The position numbers and the translations under genes were made by a program. From Pseudovirgaria hyperparasitica (taxonomy: Eukaryota): a stretch of DNA of 64,000 nucleotides. This document shows, piece by piece, positions 54,641-64,000 of the stretch (within the stretch, counting starts at the first letter, position 1; each line of letters opens with the position of its first letter). The stretch lies in the NCBI GenBank assembly GCA_010093815.1, contig ML996590.1; one strand, 5' to 3'. Below the pieces are notes generated by a model. That model saw only the letters and a program-made list of their open reading frames with translations. It was not told the origin of the DNA and searched no databases.

Positions 54641-54732
54641 CTTATAGAGGTAATTTTACTATAGATATTACTTATATTTACTTTAGTAATAGTAGTTCTA
54701 GAGATAGAGATAATATACTTATCTTCTTAATC

Positions 54733-54742
54733 NNNNNNNNNN
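54733..54742. other. Assembly gap (10 N)
   Basis: N run. Confidence 1.
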
Positions 54743-57099: not shown

Positions 57100-58752
57100 A
57101 AATTACTACTTCTACTTATACTTATATACTATTATTATAGTATTCCATAGGCTATCTATAGTATTCTTTCTTATTACTACTCTTATTATTTTTATAGATA
57201 ATTCTTTTAATAGATAGCTAGAAGAACTTAGTTTACTACTAACTATTTATATTACGTATAAAGTACTTCTTTAGTCTATAGCTTAGAAATATTCCTTTAA
57301 GTCTAGTTCTATCTAGTTCTATAAGCTAGTAGATATAGTTAAATACTAACTAGATTCTATATAGCCCTCTCTAATACTACCTTAGTTTCTATTCTATATT
57401 CTTCTATTATTATAAATTATATAGAAGAATAATAGTATTAATCTATAATAGTTCTTAATAGAGATAATAATTATTATTCTATATCTGTCTTAATTCTTTA
57501 TAAGTCTATATAGTATAGATATATACTTCTTAGAGATCCTTAGATCTTCTCTTTAGTTATCTAGCTTAAAGAGTAAGTAAGTCTAATATTAATTATATCT
57601 TATTCTAAGGGAGTATTTAGAATAATTTAAATTCGACCTCTATAGATATAATTAGTTTGTAGCTAAGTATAAGATATATAGTACTATATCTAATACTAGT
57701 ACGAGTTATAATTCTATCTATCTATATAACTATATAGAGGTATTTAGACTAGTTCTTATATCTACTATTAGTTATCTTTATAAGGGTATTAGTAAGTAGT
57801 ATAGAACTTCTTTTAATAATTCTATTTATATAGAGATTATATATAGATATAACCTTCTAATAAATTCTATAGAGTTTAAGAAGTTCCTCTATAGTATCTA
57901 TATTCTCTTTTCTACTATTATAAGTAATCTTAGAAATAATTCTATATCTATAAATAATATTTTTAAAGAGAAACTTTATAATAATAGTAGACGTAGCTAC
58001 TATATCTACCTCTATCTTAGTCTATCTACTTAGCTACTCCCTTATAGATACTACCTTACTATATTCTATAGAAGGTAGTAGCGTTATTATATCTAGGTAT
58101 ATTCTTTACTAGAGAATAGATATTACTATATAGTAGAGCCTTTTATTAAGACTACTAAGAAGTTTACTCTACTACTAATATTTATTATAAGTCTTTATAT
58201 ATTATTATATATCTTTATATATCTCTATCTATTAATACTTATCTTTAATTCTTCTAAGAGTCCCTTTACTATCTCTATAATCTATCTTATTATAAGTAGT
58301 AGTAATTATATATATCCTAGTATTCGGGTTATTAACTACTTATATATATTAGTAATATCTATCTTCTCTCTACTAGAGTATTTAGTCTTATATAAGAAAT
58401 TTAAGATAGTTAGTTATAAAGGCCTTATATATATAATTAGTTAGATTAGTTAGTCTCTTAAGTATAGTAAGATACTTTATAATTCTTTACTACTTATTAC
58501 TATATTTATTAGTTAGAGATAACTTAATAGTAGTATAGTTAAGTATCTCTATTAAGTAATCCTTCTATAGATAGACTTAATTAATAATATTCCTAGTATA
58601 TCTATATATAGAGCTATATCTATAGACTTATCTAGATTAAAAGTAGAGATATCTAGTAGTTCTTCTCTCTTATATATCTACAAGATACTATTAGTAACTA
58701 TATTATACTTTCTAGATATACATCTAATTATAAAATTCTATAGTTAAATCTA
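57100..58752 (-). mobile_element. Ty3/Gypsy family F RNaseH/integrase fragment
   Basis: De-RIP reading ITCDGGKEN...ISAYNPRANGIVERG...LTDALAK...WSKHLHAVxWADR. Confidence 0.7.
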
Positions 58753-58762
58753 NNNNNNNNNN
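58753..58762. other. Assembly gap (10 N)
   Basis: N run. Confidence 1.
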
Positions 58763-59313
58763 ATATAACTAGGTAGAGTAGTTTACTCTATAGATATATA
58801 CCTTCTCTAGTCTAAGCTATTATATAAGAAGAAACCTTTATAAAAGGAAAAACTCTCTTCTTTCTATAACTATATCTTATTAAATCTCTACGTTATCTTA
58901 AGTATATAGCTATTAGAAATATCTATAGATCTATAGTCTATAGTATAGTTATTTTACCCTTAGATAGTATATATAGAGTACGTGGGTTATTAGTTAAGGG
59001 CTATTCTTAACTAATAATTAGGGTTCTTCTAGGGTTCTTCTAGTGTATACTAGGGCTTATCTAGTATATATCTAGCTTCTTCTAGTATATATATCTAGAT
59101 CTACTAGTACTAAGAGAGTAGAAGATATATTAGTATCTACTAGATAATCTCCTTAGGGTACTTATTAAGCTAGTATATAATATTAGAGGTCTTTATTATA
59201 TAGATAAGTATTTATCTTTATATATAGAGGTTTATATATATTATAAGATAGTACTATATTATATCTCTTTAGCTATATACTTTATATTATAGAGACGCGT
59301 TATAGATATCTCT
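58763..59313 (-). mobile_element. Short 3' fragment of the LINE, copy 4
   Basis: Homologous to ~3065-3615; degenerate palindrome at 58987-59017. Confidence 0.85.
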
Positions 59314-59314
59314 C

Positions 59315-62300
59315 TTATTAAGATTATTAATAAGTTAACTTAAATTAGTTATAAAGTATACTATTTTCTATCTATATATATAGTTAGTTGTATTTATATA
59401 TCCGACCGGTTCGCTACTACCTATAGTAATTATATATAATATATACTACTACTATAGCTATAATAAGGTACCTAAATTTAAGAAAATCTACTACTATTCT
59501 TAGTAGCTTTACACGCGACGCTTAGCTAGATATAGATTTATATCTTTATAGATACTACGGCGCGGTTAACCTACTACTAAGCCGATATTTATAAGTTCCT
59601 TACTAGACACGATATACTTTATAGTTTCTTTAGAATACTCTTATTACTTAGCTAGTAGCTTAGTAACCTTATTATCTTAATCCTTATTCTAGTTAACTTA
59701 TAGTATCTTACTAGTATATAGTATACTAGTTAGTTTATATAAAGCTATTACAGCCTTACCTTATATACTATTAGAGTTATTATCTAGAAAAACTAGTTTT
59801 ATAACCTTTTAGTATATCTTATAATATAATAGTCTATTTAGTAGTAGTTTAGTAAGGTAAGATTCATACTATTTATAACTATAAGTAGCTATAGTAGTAT
59901 CTTCGAGTCTAAAGCTATAATAGTAGTAGATATTCTAGTGGTATTTAACTATTTACTTTAGTATTAACTCCTTAGTATAAAACTTATACTTAGCGTTATA
60001 GATCTAATTAGAGTACTTCTATATATACTTACTAATTTCGTTATTAAATAATCTTATAGTGTATTTACCGCATTTATAAATTAACTTTATAGACTTAAGG
60101 AGGTTAACTACCTCTTCTAGGAGCCCTAGTTACTTAATTAGCGTACCTATCTAGTATAAGTAATATTCTAGTTCCCTATAGTTAGCTAGAGAACGAGCTA
60201 ACTTACTTAGACTAGATAGAAGACCTAGATAGTTAACTAAATTAGGCTACTTAGACTTTTATTAAAATAACTAAGATAATATTTTTAAGGTAGTTAAGGT
60301 TATCTTAAGAACTAGGTAGGGCTATACTATAGTAAAATTACTATTAATTTCTTTCTTATCTAATAAGATAATAAGTCGTTCCTTTATAAACTTAGATTAG
60401 ATAATATAAGGGTCCTTCTTAATAGATAGTTTTTTAAATACTAGACTTTCTATAACTACTCTATTAAGGCTCTACGTCTTTTTAGTAGTAATTACTTTCT
60501 ACTAAAAGTTCTAGAATAATATAATATATATATCTAGATTACTCTTAACTTTAAAGGAGTCTTTAGTCGTTAAAATAGTATACTTAAATATAGATTACTT
60601 ATATCTACTTTTAACTATATTAATACTTTTATTACTAATAAGTTTATAAAGAGTTTTAGCTTACTTAAGGAGTATTATATATAGATTATTTCTAGTAGCT
60701 ATTAGAATAGACGTTAAAAATTATACCTAAGTAGCTATCGTGGTTCTCTAGTTAACTATATTTATCTTAATTAACGAGGTTATATTATATAGCTATTAGT
60801 AGATATTAGTAAGATAGATATCGGCCTAGATTAACTAGTTAATAATTCTTTTAACTACGTTAAGGTTATATATATAGATTTCTAATATAGTTACTTTCTT
60901 ATTATTTAGCTAATCTTTCTATAGAATTATAATTAGATTAAATCTTTATATACTAGTTTTAAAATTAATTACACGACTTAATTTAGGTATGAAAAGTAAT
61001 AGGTTACTAATATTTAGTACTAAGCTACCCGAGTTCGTTTACTATCTACTTAACTAACTACGTGGCGAGCTAAAGTCTAAATTATTAGTAGTAGTTAGTA
61101 ATATAAGTAATATAGTATATATATAATCTAATTATCGCGATCGGGCTAAAATTAGATTATCTACTAGACTCTTTATAGTCGGTTATATAGTACTTATAAT
61201 CTTTAATAGTTACTTAGCTAAGATACCGCCGTTATTATCTTCGTATCTATATACTAGGTTAATATCTAAGGGTACCGCCTAATTATAATAGTTGGTTTTA
61301 TTTACTATAAGTAGCTTATCTTTAATTACCTAGGGCTTAGAATAAGTCTTCTCTAAAATCTACTAATAATATAGTAGTAATATTACTACTCTACTAAGTA
61401 TAAATTAATAAAATATAATTATAACTTTATTATTTAAGACGCTAGGAGCTCCGCACGGTAGATATCCTTTCTAAAACTATTCTTCTTTTAAGAAGACGGC
61501 TAGCTAGTAGATACTAACCTTACCCTTCTTTATAATCTATTATTCTATTACTATAATAATTAGTAACTTTACTTAGTCGGATAGTTAGACGTTTATAGAT
61601 AGCTAAGTTATATAGTTCTCTATAATATTAATAGAATAATCTATATAAAATAGCTATAAATTATATTTTAAAAGGTACTATTATTTAGTTATAGAGAAAT
61701 TATCTACTACTAGTCTATTACTAGAGATCTATACGGGTAGAGCTAACGATAAAGGGTATTCTATTACTATATATTCTAGAAGAATTAGTAGAAAAGCTTT
61801 TAATAAGCTAGGAAAATTCTTAGAATCTATCTAGTCTACTATTACGTCGTATAGATCTATATAGAATAGTTAGTTAGCTAGTTTAATATTTACTCGCGTC
61901 TAAATCTTTTCTATAGACTAATAGTAGTGCTTTTTATCTACCTTTAGATATAGATATAGAAGGATACTAGTTAGTTTAGATTAAGTATAACTATTATAAG
62001 TCTACTAAATTAATATACTAGGGCTTATAAGGATAAAGCTAGTTATATATAGTAATTAGTTAATATTATAGAATAGTTATAGATTAGTAACTATAAATAG
62101 TAGACTATATAGTTAGCTTAACTATAGTACTTATTTTTAGTTAATAGATCTAGATCTAGTACTAACCTTTAAGTAAATAATATAGAAAAGTACTTAATAG
62201 TTATATATCTATAAAATACTTAGTAAATATATATATTATAACGTAGCTCGTTATAATAGATATTAATAGCTCTCTATCTATAATAGCTAGAGGCGGATAG

Positions 62301-64000
62301 ATATTATAACTTTAAGTAGTTATTAATCTAGTTAGACTTCTAGTAGACTATTTCTATAAGCTTATTTAAGGTTATATTCTTTAACTAAGTCTAATAGAAG
62401 TATACTTCGCCGTATCTACTAACCGAATTCTAGACCGTTGCTATATACTGTTACCTAGTATTTAATAGTTAGTTTATAATTATATCTAATTTAAATATAG
62501 CGCTAATTATAGATAGTTATCGCTATCTACTTATTTATAATAGTAAGTAGGTATATATCTTCTCTATAGTCGAAGTAGTTAAGTTCCTTTAGAAATGGTT
62601 CTAACTACTTAATAGATATTACTAGGTGTATTTTCTATATCCCTGGTAGCTCTAGTTCGTATATCTAATAGTCTACAACGCGTTTTATTAGTACTAGCCC
62701 GACTTACTATTAGCTAAGCTTATAATAGATGCCTAGAATCTTATACCCTTTATATAGTTAAATATAGACCTAGTTACTAGGAGCGAGATCTAGTAGAGAT
62801 ATATAGCGTATATCGAAACGCTCCTTTATACGCGTCTAGGTAAATACTAGTACGTCTAACGCCTCTTTCTAGTTTATATTATACTTTTAGATGTAATTAT
62901 TTACTTCTATTAAACTAGTCTCCTTAAATAGAGCGCCTTTAGATAGTTAGAAGCTATATAATATCTTATTTAGAGATTTTTATATTAAGGAGTTTATTAA
63001 ATTATTTATAAGTTACTAGACTAATAGAACATAGATTATCTAGTCTATGGCCGGTAATATTAAAATAAGAAAACATAGGGTAATCTCTACCGTTTAGTTT
63101 GTACGTTCGCTTTAACTATTACTCTACTTATAATAGATAGTTAATACTAGGATTTTAGTATTAATGCCCTCTAAAATTCCTTTCTAAAATAATAATAGGA
63201 ATTTTTAGTCCCTATTATAAATAATTATAGCTAGAACTCTCTATTCTAGTAGTATACTCCTTCTAAATATAGTTATCTATTATATAGTAGTCTAGTCGTT
63301 TTAGCCTAGAATAAGATAGATTCGCTTAGTAAACTTATCTATTACTATAAGTAGTATATTAAGTCTATTCTATATTAGTAGTCTAATAATAAAATCTATT
63401 ATAACTATATAAAATAGTATTAGTAGTAACTAGACTAGCTTTAATTCGCTATATAGTATATATCTTTATATCTAGTAAGTTTTATAGATAGAATAGTACT
63501 AAATATAGTACTTTAGACGCTTTATAAGCTAATAAATAAAGTAGCCTAAGCGAATTTAATCGTATACTTAGAAAAAACCTATATAAGTACTTTTATTATA
63601 GAATTAAGCGAAAATGTCTCTATTAAGTAATTTTAGTATATAGATCTAATATTATCTATTAAGCTAATTAATATAATAAATTATACTATTAGTAAATTAA
63701 AAAGAAATCGATCGGATAATATTATTATCCTAGTCTACTACTATAGCTTTTATACTTATCTAGTACTTATTATTATTATATATATTAGCTAGCTACCTTA
63801 TAAACTTTAGATTAATTTTAACTATTATAATATTAAATATTAAGAGCTCCTTAAGAATGTCTAAGTCTCTTAGCTAGACTCTATTATAGATCTAATAGAG
63901 CTAAGAAAGAGCGTTAGGTACTACGTGCTCTTTATCTAGTCTATATTTAAGCTCTAGGTTAAACTATAATAGATACTATAAGGCCCGTACTAGTTAGAGA
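59315..64000 (-). mobile_element. Ty3/Gypsy family E: integrase plus chromodomain-like region plus long in-frame C-terminal extension
   Basis: De-RIP reading VAMDFIIGLP, DRDRKF, KLHKGYKIPG..KLSQQ.VGP, KIHPVISIKQLEP (~62590-62640). The same frame continues to ~59315. Confidence 0.8.

Follow-up and report, generated by a model that had tools for sequence, protein, structure and literature searches.

A candidate third gene with a RING finger and an AT-hook-like tail in a RIP-mutated Ty3/Gypsy family of Pseudovirgaria hyperparasitica

The window analyzed here, a stretch of 64,000 nucleotides from contig ML996590.1 of Pseudovirgaria hyperparasitica (assembly GCA_010093815.1), ends inside a Ty3/Gypsy retrotransposon that lies on the minus strand and runs past the window end (64000). 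A sequence-only reading of this locus had proposed that the frame encoding the integrase motifs continues for ~3.1 kb, or about 1,000 codons, behind the chromodomain, interrupted only by TAA and TAG, and had offered two explanations, a giant Pol fusion or an extra open reading frame (ORF) in the same frame. The question raised by this extension is whether it encoded a protein at all and, if so, whether that protein belonged to Pol. Based on the analyses described here, we lean toward a third, accessory gene of the Gypsy family, termed ORF3, whose product would have carried a RING finger and an AT-hook-like tail.

On the minus strand, the frame that contains the integrase motifs (GPV..K and IHLVISIK.LEP) did continue across 62400-59315; only about 2.5-2.7 kb of it was coding, and the earlier length was an overstatement, as a spacer and a long terminal repeat (LTR) had been counted in with 830-900 codons of ORF3. 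The window was strongly altered by repeat-induced point mutation (RIP) between 59 and 63 kb, where (CA+TG)/(AC+GT) was 0.04-0.08, and two copies of the Gypsy family were separated by 696 transitions vs 69 transversions. Across 62400-59315 the integrase-phase frame contained 95 stops in 1,028 codons, 44 TAA and 51 TAG with 0 TGA, so the count behind the TAA/TAG observation was true (95/95). It was not diagnostic, as TGA occurred 0, 0, 1, 0, 1 and 0 times in the six frames: RIP erased TG, TGA is consequently rare in every frame, and stops of the TAA/TAG type alone thus carry no weight as evidence. Stop-codon type was accordingly rejected as a sign of coding. Stop totals were mildly informative, with 95 in the integrase-phase frame, 88 in the antisense frame with the same third positions and 137-162 in the other four. 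We also rejected the idea that stops fixed in all copies are true stops, since 25 of 47 stop sites in an integrase control were fixed too.

Evidence for coding came from short relics elsewhere in the genome that includes the window (G000). A profile from nine X-read copies of the extension was searched against 1.84 billion proteins and returned three, P0003, P0004 and P0005 (the last with 7,573 residues, 41 stretches and E 4e-5). P0003, which one source labels a RING-type protein, and P0004 were gene calls on short G000 relics that had escaped RIP, not host genes; since G000 itself encodes both, neither counts as evidence from elsewhere. A protein search within G000 added three further relic loci. 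The resulting five loci comprised seven segments and 461 codons (two segments overlap by 16) and spanned 61611-59512. They were G000:C9:766570-766734 and C9:169795-170037, which match an ORF3 domain conserved between lineages (61201-61611, minus strand); G000:C18:403136-403519, which corresponds to a linker-like basic/acidic stretch (60253-60624, minus strand); G000:C8:904971-905096; and two parts of a locus on G000:C4 (1351978-1352256 and 1352715-1352849). Relics covering the junction with pol or residues 385-578 were not found in the G000 search.

The relics had no stop in 461 codons of the sense frame in phase with pol and 8-19 stops in each other frame; an antisense ORF was rejected, as the antisense frames had 8-17 stops vs none in sense. 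Most window stops within the relic segments (31 of 39) faced Q, W or R in the relics. Transversions alone were counted, since RIP does not make them, and those between relics and window fell at codon positions 1/2/3 in the proportion 37/26/91 (p 5e-11). Transversions common to at least two copies were distributed 2/3/11 in 62001-61612 and 15/7/25 in 61611-59512 (L003 and L010 were left out as duplicates), and private transversions in the latter region were flat (12/14/13). The stop of the C4 relic lay at the position of window 59511-59509, where TAA was present in 15 of 15 rows, and this was taken as the native ORF3 stop. Relic codons and the transversion pattern place ORF3, about 830-900 codons long, RIP-broken and on the strand and in the phase of pol, at 59509-62019 (minus strand). 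Judged by these codon patterns, the extension was protein-coding in the frame in phase with pol, under purifying selection and inside the element.

That the extension lay inside the element was evident from its copies. A DNA search of G000 with the 3,086-bp extension as query produced 44 matches, 40 of the 51 candidates having been scored, and 13 loci, the window included, matched at least 2.68 kb of the query at 83-100%. The terminal 150 bp of the query occurred twice per element, ~9.4 kb apart; full copies on contigs C11, C9 and C1 were ~9.55 kb each, and their 150-bp LTRs were 89-93% alike. In the window the 3' LTR occupies 59316-59465 (minus strand), the last 150 bp of the extension as first delimited, so the extension is internal to the element. 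Target-site duplications of 5 bp were present in 4 of 4 copies checked (the window copy, C1, C9 and C11), that of the window being AGAGA at 59311-59315 (minus strand), repeated outside its 5' LTR; the element thus shows the two LTRs flanked by a 4-6 bp duplication that characterize Ty3/Gypsy elements. No clear purine run was seen by eye right before the 3' LTR (window 59466-59508) in four copies of this RIP-mutated DNA. Since other copies carry the extension and a 3' LTR beyond it, the extension is not flanking DNA, the alternative under which the sequence-only reading would have been abandoned. In the C4 relic a related LTR was joined directly to the ORF3 end, and the link to an LTR element therefore predates the burst of the window's family. 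All copies examined were RIP-broken. The order we somewhat favor for this chromodomain-type Ty3/Gypsy family is LTR, single-frame gag-pol, short spacer, ORF3 and LTR.

The end of ORF3 was the part whose product could be recognized. A C3HC4 RING finger, RIP-broken in the window, lies at 59812-59928 (minus strand) and was legible in the C4 relic (1351978-1352256) as C-x2-C-x11-C-x-H-x2-C-x2-C-x11-C-x2-C, split by a 461-bp insertion. The second part of this relic scored 25.8 bits on zf-C3HC4 (PF00097, cut-off 21), the first CxxC lying across the insertion; the relic therefore had both the eight ligands and the above-cut-off PF00097 match of a C3HC4 RING-HC finger. The best of its 59 PDB matches was RNF4 (E 1.2e-4), and nearly all of them were RING domains, chiefly from E3 ligases. 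In 15 of 15 rows, none of the eight ligand codons specified anything but Y, C or H, a restriction seen at 50 of 830 codons overall. The insertion itself (L052:4758-5218 on G000:C4) was MITE-like, with a 227-bp palindrome (93%) and similar inverted ends.

A cysteine ribbon, C-x-C-x18-C-x4-H-x3-C, precedes the RING at 59986-60078 (minus strand; relics G000:C8:904971-905096 and C4:1352715-1352849), and the copies showed only Y, C or H at its five ligand positions. A by-eye likeness of this ribbon to the GRF zinc ribbon (PF06839) was unsupported: the relics had no match at E 10, they lay outside three G000 candidates, and hhalign to one host GRF-like stretch gave 0.1%. The basic tail (59557-59649, minus strand) contains two motifs, broken in the window, which we take to be AT-hook-like: RGRP at about 59626-59649 and GRP at about 59557-59571. 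In the C4 relic the tail reads KRRGRPRG and GRPRR; RGRP was intact in copies C9 and C28, and the second GRP in C9 and C11. Pfam gave no AT-hook profile match on the relics, the RGRP motif having been read by eye. Read together, the relics show that a cysteine ribbon, a C3HC4 RING and a basic tail bearing AT-hook-like motifs formed the C-terminal end of the predicted ORF3 product.

For the first ~700 residues of ORF3 there was no credible match in Pfam, PDB or PHROGs, and Atlas leads were all under 0.9. A PWWP domain (PF00855) considered for 61611-61400 was rejected, as a profile match was absent and the hhalign probability was 0.5%. AlphaFold gave residues 239-405 of the extension a pLDDT of 29.6, too low to use. 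The five relic peptides, which do not cover the first ~160 ORF3 residues, had no hydrophobic segment (best 19-residue mean 0.85); RIP inflates hydrophobicity, to 1.78 in ORF3 vs 2.56 in a pol control.

Searches for ORF3 beyond G000 were negative. The X-read profile found no homologue outside G000 in the 1.84 billion proteins, and two-relic word searches among longer proteins, a weak search, found no new one. Metagenome loci with related pol (the best 80 of 161 confirmed) gave no ORF3 match below E 0.6, and viral contigs gave no homologue and one 13-residue match. This absence is weak because the queries were RIP-damaged or very short, and unannotated fungal assemblies lay outside the searches. 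The sequencing runs holding the sequence were two DNA runs from one study, with no RNA run listed. The RIP-broken pol was 35-36% identical to that of L054, L056 and L058. In L058 (2779-3693) and at the end of L056, the intact pol relatives closest to the family among the metagenome loci, a 305-codon frame unrelated to ORF3 follows right after pol; it has a weak DUF6945 match, includes a stretch that is chromodomain-like by eye, and may be a further accessory gene of this clade.

Whether ORF3 was fused to Pol depends on the DNA right behind the chromodomain. We assigned a probable non-coding spacer between pol and ORF3 to 62020-62364 (minus strand; lower edge 62200-62000), based on composition, a codon model, a +1 base and fixed stops. 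In the first ~160-340 bp behind the chromodomain a coding signal was absent. The composition measure G1 minus G2 (G at codon position 1 less G at position 2) over the 120 codons after the chromodomain was -11 in C9 (0 of 58 other windows were as low; median +12) and -3 in C11 (1 of 58 as low). The codon model, trained on gag-pol, was negative for windows from 62361 and 62301 and positive for all from 62241 on. Among 15 indel events over 4.6 kb, the sole frameshift common to copies was a +1 base at 62222, found in 6 of the 16 loci covering that position, or five contigs or distinct sites once one likely duplicate was set aside; ahead of it, at 62364-62238, are five stop sites shared by every copy. 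In the intact relatives L056, L058, L054 and P0006, Pol stops 0-45 residues past the chromodomain. On these sequence patterns ORF3 was probably a gene separate from pol. Its expression would have relied on an internal promoter or on RNA splicing, and the phase shared with pol would be a matter of chance (1 in 3). The extra ORF is thus favored over the giant fusion, for which gag-pol-ORF3 would have been one polyprotein of at least about 2,600 residues, with the RING and AT-hooks as an integrase targeting module. Such a fusion accords with C9 and C11, where a single frame runs through gag, pol and the extension with no net shift, and with the 9 of 16 loci that had no length change at the junction; P0006 Pol, moreover, ends in the AT-hook-like KRKRGRP (~40 residues beyond its chromodomain), so that such motifs do occur on integrase in this lineage. 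We regard the fusion as unlikely, given that the +1 base had spread to at least five independent sites, that the five fixed stop sites precede the +1 site, that composition right behind the chromodomain was non-coding-like, and that none of four matches of 1,612-5,131 residues was a fused relative (8,000 candidates scored; a weak test).

As for what a separate ORF3 did, it is possible, though we hold the idea tentatively, that its product was a nuclear accessory protein. In the steps we propose, the basic tail would take the protein to AT-rich chromatin and the RING would bring in an E2 enzyme of the host; the substrate would be selected by the first ~700 residues. Either a silencing factor or a histone could thus be ubiquitinated, whether at copies of the element or at its insertion sites. 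A useful separate gene whose RING and ribbon served to bind protein or nucleic acid rather than to ligate ubiquitin, with the real activity residing in the first ~700 residues, appears improbable to us. It would fit with most of the protein having no domain assignment, with the conservation between lineages of segment 61611-61201 and with a RING tail that deviates from the common ligase pattern; it is at odds with the retention of all eight ligands and with PDB matches that were nearly all RING domains, chiefly of E3 ligases. We consider it very improbable that ORF3 was a passenger, whether host gene or nested mobile element, that the retrotransposon had picked up without gaining from it. Capture by LTR elements has been described (PMC7264820), nested insertions were common in the copies, and the closest intact pol relatives had no ORF3; the frame, however, stayed free of stops in at least two older lineages even though third positions had diverged nearly to saturation, no intact host source was present among the 40 scored G000 matches, and the diverged C4 relic was already LTR-linked. 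The relic transversion pattern largely refutes this reading. Least probable is an env-like membrane protein, for which the position of a sense ORF between pol and the 3' LTR would be typical (PMC7264820), as the five relic peptides had no hydrophobic segment (the N-terminal ~160 residues being represented in RIP-mutated form only) and the RING and basic tail suggest a nuclear protein.

Several observations count against a separate accessory gene encoding a ligase. The relics were obtained by tblastn, which is biased toward stop-free segments, and un-RIPed sequence across the pol/ORF3 junction was not found. Saturated stops could not be typed, the integrase control having fixed stop sites of its own; the codon model gave negative scores for a low-complexity gag linker as well (3 and 4 of 20 windows), and shared transversions in the spacer were too few to judge (2/1/3). 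The C9 and C11 composition values are not independent, as the copies share a common ancestor, and the +1 lineage could have moved in trans. Around the final Cys pair, many active RING ligases have a Pro and an Arg; the relic RING ends in C-K-T-C-K where RNF4 has C-P-T-C-R, and ligase activity is therefore not assured. With no homologue found outside G000, function rests on motifs.

Upstream of ORF3, the RIP-broken integrase part of gag-pol lies at 62601-64000 (minus strand), as indicated by Pfam on X-read copies C9 and C11 and 32% identity to P0006, and includes a Tf2-type SH3 (GPY/F) region at about 62593-62769 (minus strand; Pfam SH3_Tf2-1 on the same X-read copies). In C9 and C11, gag, reverse transcriptase (RT), RNase H, integrase, SH3 and the extension were all in one frame. 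Pfam identified RVT_1, RT_RNaseH, Integrase_H2C2 and SH3_Tf2-1 in these two copies, with RT_RNaseH alone above cut-off; in C9 the matches were at 1544-1691, 1836-1887, 2030-2078 and 2318-2376, respectively. This is the Ty3/Gypsy order of RT, RNase H and integrase and is colinear with P0006, the nearest long intact relative found (32% identity over 1,346 columns), which has a Pfam chromodomain. The end of Pol at 62365-62530 (minus strand) is a degenerate chromodomain-like stretch: it had no Pfam match in two X-read copies, its relatives carry PF00385, and its alignment score to the P0006 chromodomain region was reached by 1 of 500 shuffles. Its alignments to L058 and L054 were weaker, their scores being reached by 33 and 41 of 500 shuffles. 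At the other end of the element, the first part of the 5' leader before recognizable gag (L023:1014-1550 and L021:972-1510) was positive in the codon model in the gag frame; the gag N-terminus may have a long extension, or there may be a small upstream ORF.

The copies often held nested insertions. The 5' LTR of the window copy was split just past the window end by a ~620-bp element (L031:5447-6067, on G000:C26) whose direct terminal repeats of ~155 bp enclose a core of ~310 bp, as in a miniature LTR element, presumably TRIM-like. It was much less RIP-mutated (index 0.47), and its relatives included a copy within ORF3 of L017 and a solo repeat in L012. Shared transversions changed allegiance along L005 (G000:C1:27414-33497) and other copies, L005 clustering with one subfamily at 62222 and with another from about 60430 onward; this switching points to recombination among subfamilies while they were active. 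Two 10-base N runs near the element (54732-54741 and 58752-58761), either assembly gaps or withheld bases, lie outside the ORF3 finding.

In its gag-pol the family resembles the chromodomain-bearing fungal Ty3/Gypsy elements P0006, L054, L056 and L058, which likewise have a single-frame gag-pol, the order protease, RT, RNase H and integrase, and a Tf2-type SH3; these elements have a C-terminal chromodomain, where the family has a chromodomain-like stretch. It differs from the 80 related-pol metagenome loci (the best 80 of 161), none of which had an ORF3 homologue; in L054, about 1.1 kb separates the pol end from the next gag frame. Extra sense and antisense ORFs between pol and the 3' LTR are known in LTR elements (PMC7264820), and ORF3, a conserved coding sense ORF at this position in most copies, is probably of the aORF-3S kind. 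It shares position, orientation, presence in most copies and selection with the aORF-3S of Athila and Bagy2, but the literature on these calls them env-like and gives them transmembrane segments (PMC7264820), whereas ORF3 has a RING and a basic tail. The genes at this position in Boty (Botrytis/Sclerotinia), which is fungal like the window's family, and gene23 of maize Grande, whose product is nuclear and which has its own promoter, are antisense according to the same review (PMC7264820), and ORF3 is sense. The main text of PMC7264820 names a RING for no extra ORF, and the available part of the main text of PMC3248453 mentions no RING, zinc finger or AT-hook. Orchid Ty3/Gypsy elements of 25 kb carry an AlkB-type m6A demethylase domain with reported activity (PMC9289625) and are comparable in that an additional domain became fixed in a Gypsy lineage, likely against host control, differing in domain, plant host and size; the available part of that paper calls fixation of extra domains rare and leaves RING unmentioned. 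RNF4, RING2 and TRAF2, all C3HC4 E3 ligases, share the ORF3 ligand pattern, the likeness being confined to the finger, and the herpesvirus RING 1chc matched the relic at E 0.45 only. In open-access full text, with most subscription journals outside it, nothing relevant was found on a retrotransposon combining a RING with a DNA-binding motif. Together, these comparisons suggest that an extra gene between pol and the 3' LTR is a known arrangement and that the new element is the RING with an AT-hook-like tail.

The value of the finding is limited by there being no intact ORF3 copy seen and no domain assigned to the main body of the protein. It does show that a gene no longer legible in any full-length copy can be read from short relics that escaped RIP. 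Some viral RING ligases (ICP0 type) dismantle silencing. We speculate, and regard it as rather unlikely, that a ubiquitin ligase directed to chromatin was encoded by this retrotransposon lineage itself, with the AT-hooks leading to AT-rich, RIP-mutated heterochromatin and the RING marking silencing proteins or histones for removal. If this speculation is correct, ORF3 would be a retrotransposon counterpart of the viral counter-silencing RING ligases. Few extra genes of LTR elements have an identifiable biochemical handle, and the RING and putative DNA-binding motifs of ORF3 suggest a testable hypothesis for how a fungal element could withstand silencing or direct where it inserts.

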